In this document: positions 589 through 49,559 of the stretch, piece after piece
Layout of the letters: each line of letters starts with the position of its first letter
How positions within the stretch are numbered: the stretch's first letter is position 1
IMG/VR virus record: IMGVR_UViG_3300013137_001132
Coordinates: 650 to 64,649 of that record
Reading direction: 5' to 3' (one strand)
DNA: 64,000 nt
From: a virus
Lineage: Duplodnaviria; Caudoviricetes
Program-made: the position numbers and the translations under genes
The notes under the pieces: model-generated
What the model saw: only the letters and a program-made list of their open reading frames with translations
Databases searched by the model: none
Told to the model about the DNA's origin: nothing

Positions 589-3500
589 CTATGGGGTTGC
601 TGTGGGAGTGGGCGTCATGTTCCCAACTCCGAAACTAGGCCATGCCCACCACTGAGGCGTAGCGGTCATGTCTCCATCCGGCCGTCTCTGATATGTGTAT
701 TCTGGCGTGGCCCCCGGAATGTACAGCGAGTCCATGAGCACGCCGCTTCTATTGTACAGGCTGATATAAGCCGTGTTGCTAATGTCATTCCTGAAGGCGT
801 AGTAGGGCCAAATGATTACAAAGTCGTTACCGCCCACATTGACGCCAGACGGGATGTAGTAGGTGTACGTGTGGGTGTTCGTCACGGTATCGCCCACATT
901 GGTAAGCTTGACGTAGTACCGATAGAAACCCATCGTCCCGCCGTCTTTGTTGTAAATCTCGATCCACTGGTCGTGGGTGTCGATGGCCCCATCCCCATTC
1001 CAGTCTACCAACATCGGGAGCATCATCACTTCGTTGAGAACGAAGTTGTAGTATGGTGTCTCAGTCGGCGTACGCGTGGGACTGGGGGTGTACGTTGACG
1101 TTGGGGTGCGCGTCTGCGTTGCCGTCGATGCAGGGGGAACCGTATTCGTACTCGTGGGCGTCGCGGAACCAGTCGGCGTCTTGGTTGGCGTGATCGTCCG
1201 CGTATTCGTAGGCGTCCATGTAGGCGTCCGCGTGAACGTCGATGTATTTGTCGGCGTCGCCGTCGGTGGCGTTGGGGTAGCCGTCGGCGTCGGCGTGTTG
1301 TTGGTGAACGTGATTACGGATGTCACGTCTGATGCAAAGCAGTTGTCGCACGCCCACAGACCCAGGGTGTGTGTCAATGTGATCGGGCCGTATGGCAATG
1401 CCGGGTCAATCTCACCGATAGCATAAACCGTCTGTGTCGTCTCAGTCAGCGCCCCAGAGACCGGGAAGACATAGATAGCACCCGACTCGTATGTTGGCAC
1501 TGGCGTCCCCGCCACAGGCGTCATTTGCGCTGCAAACTGACTATAGGGATATAGGTTCAGCGCGGTGTCATTCTCGGCCGAATAGGAAAGCGTGTACGTG
1601 ATGTACCCCCCCGGCGCCGGCGTCCCGCCTGTGTCGGCCGTGATTGCCAGGTGGACAAGCGGGGTGGGCGTTGGCGTCAATGTGGGCGTCGAGGTGGGCG
1701 TCTCGGTCGGCGTTGGGGTCAGCGTGAATGTCGGCGTCGCGGTCGCGAGTTGCAGTACCAGATAGGGCGCAGATTTGGTCGCCCCGGCCACCGGCGTAAT
1801 GGTCGCGTCTTCGACTGAGCCAAACCTGTCATCGGAATCGTTCGTGTCAGTTCGGTCGAGGATGAGGCCGTTGTTTGTGCCAGCCACCTGCGTCTGGATG
1901 GCCGGTTTCACATCCCACGTCAGCCACGTGCCGACCGTAGATGCCGAAATGGCAACCGGTGTGCCGTAGACCTCAGAAGAGGTGTCCACGTCGCGATTTA
2001 GCCCACCAGCAATCGACCACGCCGATGCCGCAGCGTAATTATTCCACGTCACATTGGCGTCGGCCGACATTGCCTGCAACACGCGTCGGATAACCGCTGT
2101 GCCCGTAATCAATACCCCGTTGTGGTAGTACTGATAGATGTATAGCGTCGCGCCGGCGATACTGGCGTTAGGATAGGCCGACAGGTTGAATTTCAGGATC
2201 GTCTCACGCTGGATAGCGCCCGACGCGACTTGCAGGGCTAGATAGCCGCTGGTCTCGTAGTTCGTAATCGGGTTGCCCGCGTCGATACGGGTATCATAGG
2301 TGTCTGTGATGCTCACCGTAACGTAGGTTGGCGTGCTCGTCGCCGCCGGCGTGTTCGTGGCTGTTGGCGTCCAGGTCGCATTCGCTACGCTCAGGTATGC
2401 GCCATACCCCGGCGTCGATTCGATGCTCCTGAAGCGATAGATCGCCGTCGGCGTCCTCTGGTCGGCGCGCACCACCAACCCATAGTTGTTGGCCGAGCCG
2501 TTCGCCCAGGTCTTCACCAAATCCGTCACGTCCCAGGAAGTCCAACTGGGGGTCGAGGAGAGCGACAGTCCGCTTTTCACTTGCGCGCAGTCGTTCACCC
2601 CCACGCACCCGGCTATGTCCCAGGCGCTGCCCGTCGCGTACTGATTCCAGGTCATCTGCGCCAGGTTGCCGGCTTTCTTGACGCGTGCAATGCTTACACC
2701 TACTGCCGGCGTCCCCGCTGGCGCCGTCGTGTTGTACATATACATATGCAAACTAGCCGAGTAGATCGTCGTGTTGGTGATGCCCGTCAGTGGGAACAGC
2801 AGCACTGGTTTGCGGTTGCGTACGCTGTCGAAGTCCACTTCCAGCAACGCGCCCTGTGGCGTCGCCGCGGCCGCCGCGTTCAGGAATGTATCCGCCGTCG
2901 CTACCACCGTGAGTATTGGGAACGTGCCTGTTGGTGCCGGCGTGTTCGTCACCGTCGGCCCGCCGCCTGTAGCCGTTGCCGTGGCTGTAGGCGTGTGCGT
3001 GCTCGTCGAGGTAGGCGTGTGCGTGTACGTTGGCCCGCCCGTTGTGACCGTGGGCGTCGGCGTCGGCGCGCGATAGGTGACAATCAGTTGCGGCCACACA
3101 TGGTAATCCGCCTGCTCTTTCGTAGCCAGGTGCACCGTCTGTGAGATGGCCGAATACCCGATCAGTTCGACGCCGGCCTGTGTCGTGCTGCCATTCAGCC
3201 ATGAAACGACCAGACTCGTCACATCGACCGTGTACGTGCCGGCCGCCTCGATGTTCATGGCTCCCCAGGGAATCTCGCCATAGTCGCCCCCCGCGGTGGC
3301 CCAGTAGTTTATACCATCGTACTTGTTCCACGTGACGCCCATCTCCGTCCAGGCGGGATTCGTCAGCGCGTAGATCGACACGTTGAACTGAGTGGCCGGC
3401 ACGCTATTGTCGGTCGCGTAGACTTGCAGCGTGGCGTTACTGATCGACGCGTAGGCCGGGATGCCACTCAGGTCGAAATTGATGACGCCGCGCCGGATGT

Positions 3501-5010
3501 TGGTCTCCTCCAGCGTCATCTGCGACTGTGCGCCGCTATTGAAGTTCGGCCCCACGCCCGTGATATAGGCATCGGCACTGGCGATGATCGCCTGCTGTAC
3601 CGTGCCGCCGCCCACCGGCGTCGCGCTGGGTGTCCAGGTGCGCGTTGCCGTTGGCCCACCCGATGTGGCGGTCGCCGTGCGGGTGCGCGTGGGCGTGTTC
3701 GTGTAGGTGGGTGTCGAGGTCGGCCCGCCCGGCGTATTCGTCGGCGTGCGCGTGAACGTGGGCACGGGCGTGCCAATCACCGGCGTTGGAATGGCTTTGT
3801 AGAGATTGTAGTTTGCCTGTAAGGTTGGCACAAACCACGATAGGTAAGCCTGCGCGTCCGGCTGCATGGACGATGTTACACAGGCCGCTGAGGTACGATA
3901 CTGCGCAGCCTGCTGAAACTCGTAGATGTCCGGCGCGGCATTATGCCCATTCTCCCACAGAATGCGTGTCTGATCGTCATAACGGTCGAAAAGAGTGTAG
4001 TATCCCTGGCAGTTGCCACGATCATCACCCCAGCAATTCTTTTTCAACCAGAAGGCTTTCCCATACTTTGCCAGGGCGTACTGTGTGGGGCGCTCCGAGA
4101 CGCCACCTCGCAAAGGGTTGGTAAAGTTGACATCAAAGCAGCCCGGATGTCCCGCAGCATTGTTCAGGCCAGACCCTACCTGCAAGATAAGTGGCGTGGC
4201 GATGAAGTGCGACCGGTATAGGTCTGTTATCTGCTTAACCTGCTCCGAGATGTAATAGCACGATTTCTCGTTCCACGCGTAGCCGTCAGTGTCTGTGTAT
4301 GGCTGTGTCAGACTACCCAGTGTGACGCCCTTGCCGGAGGCGATCATAGGGCGCACGTCAGTTTTGCCCTCTTCACAACCCTCGGTCTGACACCAGTTAA
4401 GTTCACCATAGTCGCCAATGCTCAGGTGAATTGCCACAACGCCTGGGTTGTTGTCATACCGTTCTGCCATCTCCGCGATCAGTTCATCCCAATACTCCAT
4501 GAACAACGGAGAGAAAATGTTCACGCGCCCGTTGGGATACGCGGAGGAACCCGTATATCCCGCTGCGTCGAATGCTTGGATTGTCCATTGAGGGATAACT
4601 TGATTGCTGTTAGGCTCGCTATGCGTAACCTGAAGAATAACCTTATTCGACGCGTTTGTTTTAGCCACCGCTGCGTCGAGGGCGTTCCAATTGTACACGC
4701 CGCGCTGTGGCTCTATTTCGCTCCAATAGACATTAGGATACCCCCAGGTCGTATTGTATAAGCCAGGCGAAAAGGCTTGACACATTCCCCAATACCCAGG
4801 GTTGCTGGGCTGTTTGAACGGCACCCGCGTCGCCGTTTGCGCCGGCAGCAACTGCGGCCCCTGAATCGTCGGCGGGATCGTCGGCTTTACGATGGGTGCC
4901 GGACGCGTCAACTGGCTGAGCAGCACGATGCCACCGGCCAGCAGCGCCAGGAAGACGATTGCAAGGACTACGCGTACGCGAGGTCGTGCCATGTTACTCC
5001 ATCGCTCCAT
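589..5010 (-). CDS. 1473-aa multidomain surface-type protein: N-terminal TM/signal, glycoside-hydrolase-like barrel (GH42/GH-A-like), three DNRLRE/CBM96-like domains, lamin-tail domain, Thr/Pro linkers
   Basis: Hydrophobic N-terminus; WSEIEPQRGVYNWNALD; ADAYI/ADTFL/YDTRI followed by FDLS/FPLT/FNLS; C-terminal VLNEVM...DWNGDG...QWIEIYN; many TPT runs. Confidence 0.7.
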   Translation of the reverse strand: MERWSNMARPRVRVVLAIVFLALLAGGIVLLSQLTRPAPIVKPTIPPTIQGPQLLPAQTATRVPFKQPSNPGYWGMCQAFSPGLYNTTWGYPNVYWSEIEPQRGVYNWNALDAAVAKTNASNKVILQVTHSEPNSNQVIPQWTIQAFDAAGYTGSSAYPNGRVNIFSPLFMEYWDELIAEMAERYDNNPGVVAIHLSIGDYGELNWCQTEGCEEGKTDVRPMIASGKGVTLGSLTQPYTDTDGYAWNEKSCYYISEQVKQITDLYRSHFIATPLILQVGSGLNNAAGHPGCFDVNFTNPLRGGVSERPTQYALAKYGKAFWLKKNCWGDDRGNCQGYYTLFDRYDDQTRILWENGHNAAPDIYEFQQAAQYRTSAACVTSSMQPDAQAYLSWFVPTLQANYNLYKAIPTPVIGTPVPTFTRTPTNTPGGPTSTPTYTNTPTRTRTATATSGGPTATRTWTPSATPVGGGTVQQAIIASADAYITGVGPNFNSGAQSQMTLEETNIRRGVINFDLSGIPAYASISNATLQVYATDNSVPATQFNVSIYALTNPAWTEMGVTWNKYDGINYWATAGGDYGEIPWGAMNIEAAGTYTVDVTSLVVSWLNGSTTQAGVELIGYSAISQTVHLATKEQADYHVWPQLIVTYRAPTPTPTVTTGGPTYTHTPTSTSTHTPTATATATGGGPTVTNTPAPTGTFPILTVVATADTFLNAAAAATPQGALLEVDFDSVRNRKPVLLFPLTGITNTTIYSASLHMYMYNTTAPAGTPAVGVSIARVKKAGNLAQMTWNQYATGSAWDIAGCVGVNDCAQVKSGLSLSSTPSWTSWDVTDLVKTWANGSANNYGLVVRADQRTPTAIYRFRSIESTPGYGAYLSVANATWTPTATNTPAATSTPTYVTVSITDTYDTRIDAGNPITNYETSGYLALQVASGAIQRETILKFNLSAYPNASIAGATLYIYQYYHNGVLITGTAVIRRVLQAMSADANVTWNNYAAASAWSIAGGLNRDVDTSSEVYGTPVAISASTVGTWLTWDVKPAIQTQVAGTNNGLILDRTDTNDSDDRFGSVEDATITPVAGATKSAPYLVLQLATATPTFTLTPTPTETPTSTPTLTPTPTPLVHLAITADTGGTPAPGGYITYTLSYSAENDTALNLYPYSQFAAQMTPVAGTPVPTYESGAIYVFPVSGALTETTQTVYAIGEIDPALPYGPITLTHTLGLWACDNCFASDVTSVITFTNNTPTPTATPTPPTATPTNTSTFTRTPTWTPTNTRTITPTKTPTGSATPTSTNTVPPASTATQTRTPTSTYTPSPTRTPTETPYYNFVLNEVMMLPMLVDWNGDGAIDTHDQWIEIYNKDGGTMGFYRYYVKLTNVGDTVTNTHTYTYYIPSGVNVGGNDFVIIWPYYAFRNDISNTAYISLYNRSGVLMDSLYIPGATPEYTYQRRPDGDMTATPQWWAWPSFGVGNMTPTPTATP

Positions 5011-35178: not shown

Positions 35179-37342
35179 AAGATTCACCACTTCTTCACCT
35201 ATGAGATTAGGTTCAGCCAGGCGGTAGGTGAGCCGCTTTTCGGGGATCAACCTAGACTGAACCACAAACACAAAGAAAGGAGAAAACTTCACATGACCAT
35301 CGAGATAGGCCGCGAGTTGGCCGAACGGAGGGCACCATGACTTGGGAAAAGCGTAACGAACACTGGTCATCGCCTGAAACGCTTGTAACCGATCTCGCGC
35401 TCGACGGCGTGGTCGCGGTGCGGGTATTCGACAACATCAGTCGCCGTTACATGGCTAACGACATCTTCCGCGCCATCAACACTCACGATACACTCGTGGC
35501 GGCTTGCCGAAATGCGCTGCGGCTGTTGCCCCGTGACAGTACCGCATATAACAAGATGCGCGCCGCGCTCGTCGGGGCCACGGAGGGATGATATGTACGG
35601 AGAGTTCATCGTAAAACCGCAAGACGATTTCTACATCATCGAGAACCAGAGCGGACAGCGTATCGCCCTGTGCTGGAATGAGCGCATCGCGCAGGGCGTG
35701 GCTCGCGCGGTCAACGCGCACGGACATCTGGCGCATCTCATTCGGCGCATCGTGGACATATCCGAGAACGGCAAGCCGGGCACACGCTTCCAGCGCATCA
35801 ACGCGGCCATCGAAGACGCGATGCCGGCGCTCATTGAGGCTGGTGTCGTTGACGCTGCGGCCACGGAGGAACAGAAATGAGCACTGCGAGGCAAGAAGAG
35901 TTGACGGCACGACTTGAAGCAACGTTCGAACGCGCAAGAGAACTGGCTGACATCGTGACTCAAATGTGTGGCGCGCCGGCGACGAATGCGGGCCTCCGCG
36001 ACGCGCTCGATGCCATTGCAATTTTGGCAGACAGCGCGCAGGGTGATTGGGCCGGCGTTCAGATACCCTATGCGCCAGAATGGACGCATGGATACAAGAA
36101 TATTGCAGAATTCGCCCGCGCCGCCGCGCTCGCCGCGGCCACAGGAGAGACGCCATGAAACTGCTGCAAGAATACCGCATCACCCGCCGGCTGTATGCCG
36201 ATGACACCGACGGGCGCGACCCCGGAACCCATGCGCGATGCAGAGTCTACATGGAACTACTCGACCGCTACCCCGCAGACATTGTGCGCCGGCATCTACC
36301 ACGCATCGCCGCAATACTGGCACGTAATAAGTAAGGGCTATGGCCCGGAAAGGAATCACATGAACCAGATTGACTTCGAGGAGGTGACCGCCGCTGGTTG
36401 CGGACTGGCCTTCGGTCTCACAATCATGGTGGTCGCAGCCTTTGTGCTGTGGCTATTACTCAGGGTGATAGCATGAGGTACACAGCAATCACAGATCAGG
36501 AATGGGTCGCGAAAGCGATTTGTGACATCGCCCGCGGCAAAGGCTGCGGGGAATCCTTCGACGTGCTTCTAGCGCGCGGCTACGAAGTAATCTGTGACGC
36601 ACTCGCCGAACTCAATCAAGCGATGTCAGACCGCTCTTCGGGGATCAACCTAGACTGAACCACAAATACAAAGAAAGGGGAAGGGAACATGCTACAATCC
36701 GAGTTCGAAGCAAGGCTCGCAATGATCCCCGCCATCATCGAGGGGCGGGTCAACACGGAATACACCGTCGTACAACGCGAGCTGTGCAAGCTCATCATCG
36801 AAGAGGCTTTCGCGCTCTTGGAGAAGGTCAACAGTGGCAAAGACGGCAGTCTATAGTGTCATCATCCTGTTCGTGCTGGCGATTGTTCTCGTGCTGCGCC
36901 TTCCCGGTACGGCGACACCAAATGGACACACTTGGGAATCGTGGCATCCAGAAGTCCTGTTCCTGACGCATCCAGATTCTGAGTTCGCCTGTAAGTACAA
37001 TAACGGCGCGCAGTCTCTTTGGTTGCAGTGCGATCCGGAACAGCCTGGATGCCCACCCAAGTTCGGCGGCGCGTTCCTGACGCTAGGCGGCCTGCTCATC
37101 ACGGCCTTCATGGGCACCGCCCTATACTGGCTCAATGCCATCAAACGTGGTGGCTACGAAAAGGAAGAATGACATGCCAGACGCTATCTGCCTCTTCAGC
37201 CTCGGAGTGTTCGCCATCGCCGTCGGGCTGTTGCTGCTGTGTGACAGAGACAAGACGGCCAGAAGGAACGGCCTGTTATCACTCGCCTGCGGCATCGTAA
37301 TCGCGGGCGGCACCATCTGGGCTATGCTATAGGAGCTACCAT

Positions 37343-42537: not shown

Positions 42538-43106
42538 GTAAACGTTACCGTTGGAATTAAAGTACCCTGACACGATGCCCCTCCGCGACAACTCTCCGCT
42601 AAAAGAGGAGCTAGGGCAGGGGCAGAAGCGGAGGTTCAACCCTTTTCGCGCCGTCGCGCTAGCCCCGGCATTATGTATGGAAAAGCAACGCTTGGTGTAG
42701 GCGATACACTAAAACTGGCGATGTCCGACCGGGACACTAACACGCCGTAACCAGTTCCACGTCGCTAATTCCTGAAATTGGCGGCTGCGGGGGATTTCAC
42801 CCCGCTCATCTGCCTATCTGCGGTGGCTGGCCGTCAGCGCCGCCGGCTTATAGCACATCTTCCTTCGCAGTTGACAATAACCAGAAATCACGGCAGGCAT
42901 TCCGCGCCCGTTTGCGCTCCTGGCGATTGCGTGATCGTTTATCTGGTACACACTCACATTCATGGATGCGCGCTCGTATGAACGGTATCCAGTCATTGAC
43001 GCGGAACTTGGCCGCCGGTTTTATAGTCTAGTGATTTGGGGGCGTCCAGGTCGCTCAAGATGCTGGCGCGCCGACCATCCAGCTATACCCTCGATGCGCC
43101 CCACAG

Positions 43107-43179
43107 GGTAGACGGCGGGATTCGAACCCGCATTAACTGGTTCCACAAACCAGCGCCATGCCATTAGGCTACGTCCACC
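43107..43179 (-). tRNA. tRNA-His (GUG), CCA not encoded
   Basis: 8-bp acceptor with G-1:C73 (GGTGGACG/CGTCTACC), anticodon arm CTGGT-TTGTGGA-ACCAG, T arm GCGGG-TTCGAAT-CCCGC. Confidence 0.93.
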
Positions 43180-44506: not shown

Positions 44507-44922
44507 ATCCCTTCCTTTGTTACCCTTAAGTTATGGCGCCGCCAAGTGGAAGGGTCTACCACCTTTCGGGAGCTACCCTAGACAGCGCCACCATATTTTA
44601 TTGTTAACGCAGGCCCATCCACCGCTGTATCCCTGCCCCGTAGGTTTATTACCTACACAGCTTCTTCTTCTCCATCATAGGGCTTGAGGGCGTCAACTAA
44701 TATGGTATGTTTACGCCACTGCATATCATTCCACCGCACGCGATGTTCGTCGTTCACGAGAAAGCGCAACCATTCAGGCCACCCTTCTCGCTTGCCGTAT
44801 TTCGATTGACACGCGGCGCATAAGACTTCGCGTCGGCTGCTCGTCGCTCGTTGGCACACTACGCAATGGTACAATGATATGCCCCCTACTCTCTATACGG
44901 ATTTAGAGGGCCAAAAGTCAAG

Positions 44923-46030: not shown

Positions 46031-47437
46031 CTACGAATCTTCGTCCTGTGATACGCTAATCCCCTCAAGCGCCGCGATGTACTCCAAGAAGTGCTGGCTC
46101 CATCCCGCGATCTCAGCAGTCCATACCCCATCGTAGTTCACGCCATGCGTATGTGCTCCCACGTCGATGATGTAGTTGCGCTCACCGAACGGGGCAGGAA
46201 CGCGCTTGCCGGGATAGTCGCAGTCCTGGGAGTCAGAGAACACCATGATACGAGCGGGCTTGCCTTCGCTATGTGCCTTGATGTATTCAAGGCACTGTCT
46301 CGTGAAGATGCCGCCGCCGCCCATACTGTTGAGCGCGTTCTGGATCTGATCTGCCAGAGCAAACCCGCGATAGGATTTGAGTTGCACCGTGTTGTGTAGA
46401 TGCCTGAAGTCGTCCCCGGCCGTCACCCAAATGTCCACGTGCTCGCACATTTCAGCGGCCAGCATCGCCATCGCCGCAGCAGCATCTAGGCGCGTCATGT
46501 CGCTCTTGTCACTGAGCGCGGCCCGCATGGAACCAGACACATCCACGACGACTACAGAACGTCCGGGGAGTTTTTGCTTCATGGAAAGGCCACGCAGCAT
46601 CAGGTCTTCCAACTCACGCGTCCACTCCGGCGCGTATCTTGCAGCCGCCATGTAATTGACAGGAAGAAGCCACTTGGGGTTGATCGTCTCAAAGCCGCGC
46701 TCGATGACCCCGCGGCTGACTTTCGCTTCCTTCATGTTACGCAAGTTCCGCACGAAGGCCAGCGCACCCAGCTTCTTCTCGCCGATAAGCCGTTCCCACG
46801 TCGCCTTCTTATCTGCGCCAGAGGACAACGCGACCTCCCAAGTGTCCGGCGTCGGAAGCGTATTCTCCGCGATCTGCTTGTACAGTTCTTCGCGTTCCTG
46901 GGTGGGCTTCGGGTGCACCATAAAGAGCACGTCCCTCAGCTTAACCGCCGCGTCGTCCTTCTTGTACTTCCCGAACTCGTAGGCGTTGAACTGCCCGAAC
47001 GCCACGGCGAGTCCGAGCTTGACCTGCTTTGCCAGCGGACATTTGCCGTCACGCCAATAGAGGGCCAAAAAATCGCTCAGTTGATCGGCCCGCGTGATGA
47101 TCTTGGGGAGAAGTCCCCCCAACAGTATGCAGTATTCTGGAAGCCGGGCCATCTCGCGCGCGATGAACAGCGGGACGTGACGAAGCCCCTGATTACAACG
47201 CGCCTCAATGGCGATGTCGAACACCGTGCCGGCAGGAACTTGCGGAATCAGATTCTTAATCTCATCCGCGACGAAGACGCCTGTCTGGTAATACTGATCT
47301 TCCCATAACAGATTTGCCATGACCGCGCGACGCAAAAGGGACTCGGCATCCTGCTTGGCTGCGAATGTTCCGTAGCCGCCAGCTAACCGAGTCCCCCTGT
47401 CCAACCGATAGTCCTTCGCCTTCTCGTTGACCTTCAT
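46031..47437 (-). CDS. rsr: Ro60/TROVE-vWA RNA-binding protein
   Basis: LLWEDQYY, RADQLSDFLA, FNAYEFGKY, KLRDVLFMVHPKP, PDTWEVALS, LGALAFVRNLRN, vWA MIDAS DVSGSM, FSDSQ. Confidence 0.92.
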   Translation of the reverse strand: MKVNEKAKDYRLDRGTRLAGGYGTFAAKQDAESLLRRAVMANLLWEDQYYQTGVFVADEIKNLIPQVPAGTVFDIAIEARCNQGLRHVPLFIAREMARLPEYCILLGGLLPKIITRADQLSDFLALYWRDGKCPLAKQVKLGLAVAFGQFNAYEFGKYKKDDAAVKLRDVLFMVHPKPTQEREELYKQIAENTLPTPDTWEVALSSGADKKATWERLIGEKKLGALAFVRNLRNMKEAKVSRGVIERGFETINPKWLLPVNYMAAARYAPEWTRELEDLMLRGLSMKQKLPGRSVVVVDVSGSMRAALSDKSDMTRLDAAAAMAMLAAEMCEHVDIWVTAGDDFRHLHNTVQLKSYRGFALADQIQNALNSMGGGGIFTRQCLEYIKAHSEGKPARIMVFSDSQDCDYPGKRVPAPFGERNYIIDVGAHTHGVNYDGVWTAEIAGWSQHFLEYIAALEGISVSQDEDS

Positions 47438-47455
47438 GTTTTTCTCCTTTCAGTA

Positions 47456-47727
47456 CCGGGGGAACGAACAGATCGGGTTTGTACTTTCCGAAGAAGTATC
47501 CCAATCCTACACCACCCGGACGATACGCTCATTAAGCTGGGGAACGGACGGAAAGAGTTACGGTTAGCACCCTACCCGAAGGCTAGGGAAGCCATCTTGC
47601 AGAAAGAAGTATCTCTTTCCTACACCACCAGCTTGTTGTTAAAGATGTCGGGGAACAAGCGGCGACGGGTATGTTTTCGCTTATCATTTACAGTGATATG
47701 AAGTACCCGTAACCTACGCCACCGACA
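47456..47727 (-). ncRNA. Array of three Y-RNA-like units (47727-47646, 47634-47534, 47519-47456)
   Basis: Each unit: closing stem, GGTGGYGTAGG, covarying stem, TACTTC, variable insert, stem, GTTCCCC; lies between a promoter and the TROVE gene. Confidence 0.75.
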
Positions 47728-47732
47728 ATATC

Positions 47733-47761
47733 ATTGTACCACGGGGAGCATTAGAAGTCAA
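47733..47761 (-). promoter_or_regulatory. Sigma70 promoter for the RNA array and TROVE gene
   Basis: TTGACT-N17-TACAAT with extended TG; predicted start at about 47727, the first base of the first unit. Confidence 0.8.
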
Positions 47762-47802
47762 GGGGTTGCGGTAAACAGAACCTTAAATTTTCATCACCCC
47801 CC

Positions 47803-47831
47803 TTGACTTTTGTATGACATTATTATAGAAT
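47803..47831 (+). promoter_or_regulatory. Divergent sigma70 promoter for the recombination/replication operon
   Basis: TTGACT-N17-TAGAAT followed by GGAGG and ATG 47849. Confidence 0.8.
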
Positions 47832-48650
47832 GAGTGCGGAGGTGAGAAATGGAGCCGACTTACGGAATAGTAACCCATGCGGATTCAAGTTCGATTATAG
47901 TTAATGACCTGCACGACATCCCGCCAGTCGGGACACACGTGCTGGTCTCGTGGACAGACGACCACGTTTGTCCGAAGTTGACCCAGGAACAGCAGGAACG
48001 CGCCAGTCTGGGAATCGTGGAGGGCCAGTGGATTATGCAGCTTCTTGGAAGGGATGGTTTGTGGTGCGATTCGTTTGACATCGTGGCATGTCCGTTCTGT
48101 GGGGAGAAGTTGCCATGAGACACACGATCAAGGGCCGGGTCGAAAGCGATGAGCAAGGCCGCTATATCTCGTCAGGGGAAATGCCCGACACTGGTACAGA
48201 GGTTGAGGTTTCTTGGGACGAACCCAAAGAGCCGCACAACTACAAGTACGAGCCTTCGGGAAGCAAAATACAGCCTATCTGTTATGCGGGGGGCCGTTCA
48301 TATCCCGTGGTACTCTGTCCGTGGTGTGGAGAGAGGCTATCATGAGAAGGCTGAAGATCGGTGGGAGCAGAATCAACGCAGAGCACATCGTTGCCGCTAA
48401 CGGAAACATCCAGTATGTAGACATCGTCTTTGCGAACAATGGATTGCTCACGCTTACCGACGAAGAAGCTGAAGCCTTCCTGTGGTGGTGGGACACCTAC
48501 CCCATTACCAGGAGCACTTTATGCATTGATGTGGTTGAGGCATATCGCGCAGTGAAGAAGCCAGACGTGACGCCAGGCGATTCAGACGACGACGACATTA
48601 CCCTAGAGGTGGATTGGTGTGATGGAATGGGAGATCAATAGGAGAAATCA

Positions 48651-49559
48651 ATGACTAATGCAATCGTGAAGGTAGACCCGATTCTGATGCCGCAGACCCT
48701 TGCGGCCGTGATGGAACTGAGCGAGGTGCTTGCTAAGAGCGGCATTCTGCCAAGTTACCTGAACACGCCGTCGAAGGTAGCAACGGTTATCTTGGCTGGA
48801 CGCGAGTTCGGACTGTCGGCAATCCAGTCAACCAAGCTGATCTTCGTAGACACAAAGGGTAGGTGGGGTATGATGACGGCGCTAATTGGGGCGCGCATCT
48901 TTCATCTGGGCCATTCCTATGAGGTCAAGGAACTCACCGTAGAGAAATGCACCATCGAGTTCACTCGCAAAGGACATGCCCCCGTATCCTATACCGTGAC
49001 CATAAAAGAGGCTCATGAGGGCAAATGGGATTCGGATTGGGACAACTCAAAGTCTGAGTGGAAGACTAAGGCAACGTGGCGCTCCTATCCCCGTGACATG
49101 CTATTCAATCGCTGCCTTGCGATGGGTGCCCGCAAGTTCATGCCAGACATCTGCGCGGGGTTCTATACGCCAGACGAGCTTGGAGTGTCAACTGCCGTTA
49201 CCGATGAGGGCGAAGAGATGGTGGACGGCGAGTGTAGACCAGTCCCAGAACCCGTCGGGGGAGACGAACCATCCCCCAAGACCGAGCCGGAACCCAAGTC
49301 GGAACCGCAGGAAGCATCCGATCTGACAACGCGTGGCGCAAGGCTTACCGCATTGCAAGACGTCCTGAAGCGGCTCGCGGGATTTGACCCCCAAGAGCAT
49401 GGCCCCTACTGGGCACGCAACCACGTGGCGAAGCATTACAATAAGAAAGCTAACTCTGATCTCACTGACCTGGAAATCAATGAGTTCTACGAAGAAGCGC
49501 TCGGCATCCTCGCGGGCGTACAAGAGCAACTAGCGAAGGAGGCTGGTAATGTGGCATAA
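48651..49559 (+). CDS. RecT/Bet-like single-strand annealing protein
   Basis: LAKSGILP...ILAGREFGL...WRSYPRDMLFNRCLAMGARKFMPD...YTPDEL. Confidence 0.75.
   Translation: MTNAIVKVDPILMPQTLAAVMELSEVLAKSGILPSYLNTPSKVATVILAGREFGLSAIQSTKLIFVDTKGRWGMMTALIGARIFHLGHSYEVKELTVEKCTIEFTRKGHAPVSYTVTIKEAHEGKWDSDWDNSKSEWKTKATWRSYPRDMLFNRCLAMGARKFMPDICAGFYTPDELGVSTAVTDEGEEMVDGECRPVPEPVGGDEPSPKTEPEPKSEPQEASDLTTRGARLTALQDVLKRLAGFDPQEHGPYWARNHVAKHYNKKANSDLTDLEINEFYEEALGILAGVQEQLAKEAGNVA

Follow-up and report, generated by a model that had tools for sequence, protein, structure and literature searches.

A Y-RNA-like gene beside a phage Ro60 gene probably carries an isolated look-alike of a tRNA anticodon arm

The hairpin analysed here forms the tip of the first of three tandem Y-RNA-like genes, a known class of genes, lying between a sigma70-like promoter and a phage Ro60/TROVE gene, and the RNA that it caps (unit 1) is probably a Y RNA variant whose apical module is an isolated anticodon-arm look-alike. 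That Y-RNA-like genes accompany a phage Ro60 gene is known; what is new is probably the reduction of the effector module of unit 1 to such a look-alike. From its context and from comparison with relatives, we lean towards regarding this tip as a genuine anticodon-arm-type module of a Y-RNA-like RNA, and consider that reading rather probable. The window (the whole 64-kb stretch of DNA analysed) derives from an IMG/VR virus record of 64,649 bases, estimated by CheckV to be 71% complete, and belongs to a lake-water phage with major head, portal, large terminase and RecT-like genes. Coordinates of the features are collected in Table 1.

Table 1. Features of the Y-RNA/Ro60 region and its surroundings (positions in the window)
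Feature	Position	Strand	Details
Unit 1, Y-RNA-like	47647..47727	-	R1 58.0 bits, E 1.4e-12; outside the R1 training set
Apical hairpin of unit 1	47682..47698	-	UAUCA-CUGUAAA-UGAUA; 5-bp stem, 7-nt loop; nested inside the UUC/GAA helix
Unit 2, Y-RNA-like	47536..47633	-	R1 55.2 bits, E 6.9e-12; outside the R1 training set
Unit 3, minimal Y-RNA-like (YrlB-like hairpin)	47456..47520	-	R1 66.7 bits; unit in training alignment A1
Sigma70-like promoter	47733..47761	-	TTGACT-17-TACAAT with TG extension; 10/12 matches
Ribosome-binding site	47444..47448	-	AGGAG, 6 nt before the Ro60 ATG
Phage Ro60/Rsr orthologue	46031..47437	-	468 aa; TROVE and vWA with MIDAS DVSGS; Pfam, PHROG and structure match
Divergent promoter-like site for rightward genes	47803..47831	+	Upstream of ORF 47849-48118
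ORF with strong ribosome-binding site	47849-48118	+	GGAGGTG; behind the divergent promoter-like site
RecT-like gene	48651-49559	+	Downstream of ORF 47849-48118

The protein encoded beside the units matched Pfam TROVE (E 1.1e-09, 38.4 bits, cut-off 23) and PHROG 850 'RNA-binding protein' (E 6.7e-29), and its best solved-structure match was phiRo60 of Thermus phage phiLo (9KOP/9L5Y; E 1.2e-13, residues 15-458); matches to Pfam VWA_2 and vWA_Ro60 fell under the cut-off, with the MIDAS motif DVSGS present. The three units (47727-47456) and the TROVE open reading frame (47437-46031) adjoin one another on the minus strand. Three promoter-like sites were found against 0.7 expected from shuffles, and transcription from the site ahead of unit 1 is predicted to start at about 47727-47725, which would be the first bases of that unit. 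Relatives L223, L230 and L234 have a TTGACA/TTGACT ... TACAAT/TAATAT pair directly 5' of their first unit. A single transcript fits the arrangement because the units follow a promoter, no terminator-like site was found within 47300-48000 (none, in particular, between unit 3 and the Ro60 gene), and a ribosome-binding site and the TROVE start codon follow, the latter 18 nt past the end of unit 3. One sigma70-type promoter would thus drive units 1, 2 and 3 and phage Ro60 as one RNA, and the units would be excised from this precursor by analogy with Mycobacterium smegmatis.

The same layout could be read differently: the three units would then be chiefly cis-acting, forming a structured 5' leader by which Ro60 autoregulates its own mRNA, rather than stable RNAs that act in trans. 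Their position in the 5' untranslated region, ending just short of the start codon with no intervening terminator, would suit such a role, but in M. smegmatis YrlA and YrlB also lie upstream of rsr and one precursor yields stable Ro60-bound RNAs, in the account of PMC4201824. Nor is the leader position conserved, because the units of crAss-like phages and of locus L261 sit downstream of the Ro60 gene. We therefore consider a mainly cis-acting leader highly improbable.

The closest parallel to an operon of excised Y-RNA-like units is that of Thermus phage phiLo, where Yrl1 and Yrl2 lie upstream of phiRo60 and bind it, and the complex with host PNPase attenuates the nuclease, as reported in PMC12135203. 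Both phages place tandem Y-RNA-like genes directly upstream of a phage Ro60 gene, both sets of RNAs have a stem/internal-loop/stem plan with a CGAA-type motif or a variant of it, and phiRo60 is the protein whose solved structure the window protein matches best. The window differs in having three units rather than two, GYGUAGG in place of CGAA and an anticodon-like tip on one unit.

To collect homologues, viral contigs were pattern-scanned with the conserved 5' motif, TACTTC and the 3' motif. This descriptor yielded 190 distinct units, of which 171 were kept and 19 dropped, either for reading through into the next unit or for having no 5' motif; the 171 were split into 54 with a T arm (long, YrlA-type) and 117 without (short). 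Alignment A1, of 33 short units (unit 3 of the window and 32 from other phages), gave an RNAalifold consensus of 15 pairs, 13 with compensatory changes, comprising an outer helix (GG/CC pair, bulged U), an internal loop with YGWA opposite UUGUU, and an inner helix. Covariance model R1, built from A1, found exactly three matches in the 64-kb window, which are units 1-3. Units with the same motifs adjoin the Ro60 genes of relatives. A replicate set, anchored on the TROVE protein instead of on RNA motifs, comprised 63 loci with 82 new units; a single-protein query had found none of the Ro60 relatives in viral contigs, and an alignment query 63. The first-pass annotation had regarded the units as cassettes of an array, a description that gives way to Y-RNA-like genes with covarying stems and predicted co-transcription with the Ro60/TROVE gene. 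A CRISPR-like or other tandem cassette array was ruled out, the units being structured RNAs whose stems covary.

Unit 1 runs 5' to 3' through an outer stem, GGUGGCGUAGG (47723-47713), an inner stem, UACUUC (47705-47700), the apical hairpin, an A-rich linker and GUUCCCC (47656-47650), and folds at -26.9 kcal/mol (z -2.75). As in the other window units, its two ends base-pair to form a long stem that a conserved internal loop interrupts. Unit 2 has a larger apical insert of 51 nt with a CCCUAGCC-UUCG-GGUAGGG-type hairpin and without a T arm; the CTGCAAG with a weak stem reported there at first pass was found as described. The UUCG cap reported for unit 3 is present as c(UUCG)g, but it is not the only structure available to that unit, since UACUU-CUUCGGA-AAGUA (5 bp, 7-nt loop) can be drawn equally well.

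TACTTC is the conserved YUAY plus UUC element of the Y RNA family, which is described together with the GNCGAAG Ro60 site in section 6 of Chen et al. 2014 (PMC4201824). The family 5' motif in our alignments, G-N-Y-G-W-A-G, encompasses that published site, and UAC corresponds to the published YUAY. At the GNCGAAN0-1G position the window units read GGCGUAGG and GGUGUAGG, with one or two departures from the motif, and the same alignment column in homologues (L143, L181 and L210, for example) holds GGCGAAG; judged by this column, the 5' motif of the window units is a variant of GNCGAAG, the putative Ro60 site. In each unit, the conserved stem and internal loop (5' GGUGGYGUAGG, 3' UUGUUCCCC) would be the contact site for the Ro60 ring, and the resulting particle would present the variable tips to other factors, among them a putative partner of the unit 1 loop.

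Several features of this binding region recall a tRNA. The 5' motif GGUGGYGUAG (47713-47723) resembles a tRNA D loop and is taken by ARAGORN as a D arm, the 3' motif UUGUUCCCC (47650-47660) resembles a T loop, and one short unit was called by ARAGORN as tRNA-Pro(cgg) (177-1). A descent of the Ro60-binding internal loop from a tRNA elbow is a speculative hint in these resemblances.

Some relatives are more completely tRNA-like. In Xanthomonas phage MET23-P3 (L004) and metagenome contig L226, units that share the motifs of the window have in addition a T arm, a closed acceptor-like stem and a D arm, and these long units match the Rfam YrlA model RF02553 at E 1.4e-9 to 2.8e-5, all under its gathering score of 69 bits. 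The window units share with YrlA (RF02553; PMC4201824; bioRxiv 10.1101/312249) the link to Ro60, the 5' motif, YUAY and the closing stem, but the tRNA-like domain of T arm, closed acceptor-like stem and D arm is absent from all three and none matches RF02553, so that they are not YrlA members, though homologues are. This sets them apart from the Y RNA sets surveyed in Chen et al. 2014 (PMC4201824), where every species is described as having the T/acceptor/D module in one or more of its Y RNAs. They also recall the YrlB/Yrn2-type RNAs, the short hairpin-like Ro60-associated RNAs that the same article places beside YrlA and rsr on a common precursor, from which unit 1 differs in having a 7-nt CUGUAAA loop.

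The minus strand from 47698 to 47682 reads TATCA-CTGTAAA-TGATA, as first noted, although the hairpin begins one base after TACTTC and not two as had been stated. The earlier identification of its loop with that of bacterial tRNA-Tyr(GUA) holds, the same seven nucleotides occurring in Escherichia coli tyrT (GCAGA-CTGTAAA-TCTGC), likewise on a 5-bp stem; the unit 1 stem has another sequence, lacks a cloverleaf and is embedded in a Y-RNA stem. Every feature of a tRNA anticodon arm is present at the tip, namely a 5-bp stem, a 7-nt loop, Y32, U33, R37 and A38, and the loop itself reads C32, U33, GUA, A37, A38. The cloverleaf setting (D arm, variable loop and T arm) is absent around it according to Rfam and ARAGORN, in agreement with the original observation that no D or T arm flanks the 17-mer, neither program giving a tRNA or YrlA match in the array. 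Across the whole window, the sole ARAGORN call was a tRNA-His at 43106-43178, with none at the array; Rfam returned no RF02553 or tRNA match in 46500-48500 at E up to 10, only two weak unrelated matches, and none in the array when the whole window was searched at gathering score.

By itself the 17-mer is real but near chance level. The 29-nt hairpin folds in isolation at -1.3 kcal/mol (z -0.08), with 72 of 200 shuffles folding equally well, and the tip stem, rich in AU, is weak. Counted on both strands, the window has 7 perfect 5-bp/7-nt hairpins whose loop fits YU...RA, against 1.6 +/- 1.3 in 20 shuffles, and 1 whose loop is CTGTAAA, against 0.05. The 17-mer alone is therefore weak evidence, on account of its isolated-fold z-score and the shuffle hairpin counts, and its weight derives from its context and its relatives. 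Compared with those relatives, the unit 1 hairpin is placed 4 nt past the register usual in YrlA-type units.

The relatives that bear most directly on the question are the long YrlA-type units, many of which carry a canonical anticodon-type arm collinear with tRNA positions 27-65. Of the 54 long units, 18 have 22 nt between UUC and the T stem and 16 have 21 nt, a spacing that equals tRNA positions 27-48 in length. A hairpin with a 7-nt loop and a stem of 4 bp or more begins no further than 7 nt from UUC in 32 of the 54, against a shuffle mean of 8.9; the modal loop length of these hairpins is 7. Under a strict definition of the arm (a stem register of 5 bp in which four or more pairs form, closed by a 7-nt loop and separated from the T stem by 3-6 nt), 22/54 long units have one right after UAC-UUC and 32/54 do not. 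U33 is present in 20 of the 22 strict arms, R37 in all 22 and A38 in 21, and the three occur together in 20 units, against a shuffle mean of 0.33 and a maximum of 4 in 500 shuffles. Positions 36-37 read UA in 12 arms, GG in 7, AA in 2 and CA in 1. The connector between arm and T arm is 3-6 nt long, most commonly AGGUC (9 units), and the cloverleaf setting of the arm in these units is confined to this 3' side, where connector and T arm follow the hairpin. The signal persists after clustering at 70% identity (U33 and R37 in 9/24 long units; shuffle mean 0.5, maximum 3), and the hairpin helix is 90% paired across 18 ungapped sequences, with two of its five pairs variable and both covarying. The replicate added 19 long units, 4 of which bear the arm, each with the three features (shuffle mean 0.07, maximum 2). 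The enrichment of anticodon arms after TACTTC that the first-pass annotation had proposed looking for is thus found in YrlA-type long units, in the first set and the replicate alike; in short units it is weak, and the replicate is not significant.

The 20 full-signature arms hold 13 different triplets, and 13 of the 20 share one D-arm type (TAGCTCA-type) whatever the triplet, so that one conserved scaffold bears varying triplets. For the same reason, recent copying of each arm from the matching tRNA was mostly rejected as its origin, the exception being L206:849, which pairs a Glu-type D arm with UUC.

Standard tRNA finders also respond to these arms. ARAGORN made 29 tRNA calls on the collected loci, 16 of which (17 by eye) are 5' halves of YrlA-type units with the hairpin serving as anticodon arm, and the Rfam tRNA model scored 28.2 bits (gathering score 29) on L004 2237-2307, placing UUCGA-CUGUUAA-UCGAG in its anticodon-arm columns. 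The miscalled 5' halves are found in loci L008-L222, for example L004 2237-2307, L190, L194 and L220. When YrlA-type units were permuted to normal tRNA order, 28/50 were called by ARAGORN, but mostly with odd anticodons because of the 6-9-nt linker behind the D arm, which leaves these calls uninformative. Some tRNA genes annotated beside phage Ro60 genes may accordingly be Y RNAs, and since ARAGORN called 16 Y-RNA units tRNA, counts of phage tRNAs near Ro60 genes are probably inflated. The PhageMaP preprint, in a remark on Bas63, suspects that a tRNA annotation by the Ro60 gene is a Y RNA.

The recurrence of the arm in YrlA-type phage RNAs runs counter to their usual anticodon-less description. 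In the text of Wang et al. 2018 (bioRxiv 10.1101/312249), YrlA of Salmonella Typhimurium is without an anticodon loop, as the solved YrlA structure is also described, and in the main text of Chen et al. 2014 (PMC4201824) the element is only a 'V' stem-loop, "less-conserved" and set in the position of a variable arm. An anticodon-like nature of this stem-loop is not stated in the literature searched, which included the main texts of both articles (PMC4201824, 10.1101/312249); the supplements of Chen et al. (Tables S1/S2, Fig. S1) may show it. Many phage relatives thus bear the 5-bp/7-nt arm before a T arm, whereas unit 1 keeps only the arm. Its tip would be a stand-alone form of the YrlA-type stem-loop after UAC-UUC, which in the long units is followed by a 3-6-nt connector and the T arm, and the hairpin would belong to the tRNA mimicry of phage Y RNAs and not be a cassette of an independent array.

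Whether the tip of a short unit such as unit 1 is itself under selection is a separate matter, and here the main competitor is a neutral apex: unit 1 would be Y-RNA-like, with selection on the Ro60-binding stem only, a fast-drifting tip, and a match to tRNA-Tyr that is chance or a decaying remnant. The hairpin lacks stability of its own, about 1.6 strict anticodon-like hairpins are expected by chance in a 64-kb window, and the hairpin is absent from the closest relatives, whose first units have other apices (Ro60 identity 63% for L230, 61% for L234, 59% for L235 and 58% for L223). Strict loops occurred in 9/117 short units of the first set against 0.2 in shuffles, which speaks against neutrality, and in 6/56 clustered short units against 0.10, but in only 2/63 replicate short units, no more than in the best of 300 shuffles. 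The short-unit enrichment is thus weak and not clearly replicated, and the Y-rich (U/C) 5' and A-rich 3' sides of the apices could favour YU..RA loops, a bias outside the shuffle model.

Against a neutral apex, the exact CUGUAAA recurs on a paired stem in three Y-like units with three different stems, those of the window, L226 and L261. The L226 stem, too, matches tRNA-Tyr: its short-unit apex, GCAGA-U-CUGUAAA-UCCGC, has 16 of the 17 bases of the E. coli tyrT arm plus one inserted U; its loop comes to 8 nt, and to 6 nt in the fold of lowest energy. In L261 the hairpin is UUUCA-CUGUAAA-UGAAA, with AGUCU and a T arm behind it. For a neutral apex, in turn, L227, a near-twin of L226, has UCCUUGAA in place of CUGUAAA and differs at 3 loop positions, short-unit apices are highly variable, and arrays swap units, as the middle units of L225 and L226 illustrate. 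Weighing these observations, we regard a neutral, drifting tip as a contender that is nonetheless unlikely, and continue to prefer a genuine anticodon-arm-type module.

The related arrays also illustrate how units change. Across about 900-1300 of L225, L226 and L227 a whole unit has been replaced, the middle unit of L225 differing from that of both L226 and L227, and between L226 and L227 three substitutions are confined to the apical loop of one unit. Units seem to turn over like cassettes. In a comparison of whether changes concentrate in the loop, the three close unit pairs that were usable differ at 2 of 21 positions in the loop and at 9 of 298 elsewhere. A 9-mer, GCGAAAACA, shared by unit 1 and the post-D-arm linker of L011, was considered as a sign of an origin by deletion and judged undiagnostic, A-rich linkers being found family-wide.

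A different arrangement of the same parts is seen in crAss001 (L001, a Bacteroides phage) at 4142-4287 and in L261 at 3037-3164 and 3179-3318, where tRNA-like genes lie in an unannotated gap past the Ro60 gene. These genes are in normal tRNA order, with a 7-bp acceptor stem, a D arm and a 3' T arm, and have, between the D arm and the anticodon-arm region, an insert that forms a closed, circularly permuted Y-type module (GUUCC first, then GGUGUAG...UUACUUC). In L261 3179-3318 the insert is followed by the CUGUAAA hairpin, AGUCU and T arm given above. Fold z-scores are -1.67 for crAss001 4142-4287, -2.09 for L261 3037-3164 and -3.32 for L261 3179-3318. Such genes would be tRNA-Y RNA chimeras, and they fit a Y stem emerging at the tRNA 26/27 junction.

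As to function, the hairpin displayed by Ro60 could be a decoy, sensor or substrate for enzymes that act on the tRNA-Tyr anticodon loop, whether host-defence anticodon nucleases or modification enzymes. The loop contains U33-G34-U35 and A36-A37-A38, which are recognition elements of tRNA-guanine transglycosylase and MiaA, respectively. The retention of the signature across 13 triplet types on largely one scaffold, the TAGCTCA-type D arm being shared by 13 of 20, also points in this direction. Host defences that destroy tRNA-Tyr exist, Retron-Eco7 being described as one (PMC12673091, PMC11555353), and a phage Ro60-like protein, Bas63 gp130, is reported in PMC11482910 to counter the defence system ppl. 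Conversely, searches of the window with Pfam and PHROG recognised no anticodon-nuclease, RNA-ligase or tRNA-repair gene, the loop differs between L226 and L227, and the stem in unit 1 is AU-rich and weak. A role as decoy, sensor or substrate specific to tRNA-Tyr enzymes strikes us as very unlikely.

A broader synthesis would join these elements into one picture, which we also hold to be improbable as a whole, if a shade less so. Phage Ro60 particles would display exchangeable tRNA anticodon arms on tRNA-derived Y RNAs that retain a true anticodon arm and whose Y stem leaves the tRNA body at the 26/27 junction. Two circular permutations would exist: the termini would fall in the Y stem in the YrlA type and in the acceptor stem in the crAss-like tRNA-Y chimeras. 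The stripped-down unit 1 would be a tRNA-Tyr look-alike acting as bait, sensor or sponge for anticodon-loop readers such as anticodon nucleases and modification enzymes.

The role of the tRNA-like module in bacterial and phage Y RNAs has been a standing question since 2014. If many of these RNAs bear genuine look-alikes of the anticodon arm, and some consist of the arm only, as we favour for the tip of unit 1, attention would shift to factors that read anticodon loops, and the question would become testable with short RNAs.

The surroundings of the operon show some further features. In four further metagenome runs from lakes or sediment, contigs stop at the edges of the array, leaving 47513-47722 uncovered, probably because repeated units break short-read assembly. 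The region 47740-47850 is a divergent promoter region, from which the Y-RNA/Ro60 operon runs leftward, and a minus-strand open reading frame at 47860-48156 that overlaps ORF 47849-48118 is probably not a gene. Elsewhere on the minus strand, the Rfam int-alpA RNA (RF02996) matched above its gathering score at 42596-42669, 35198-35262 and 44523-44588 (44.4, 40.6 and 40.2 bits), near HNH/endonuclease VII genes and the tRNA-His gene.
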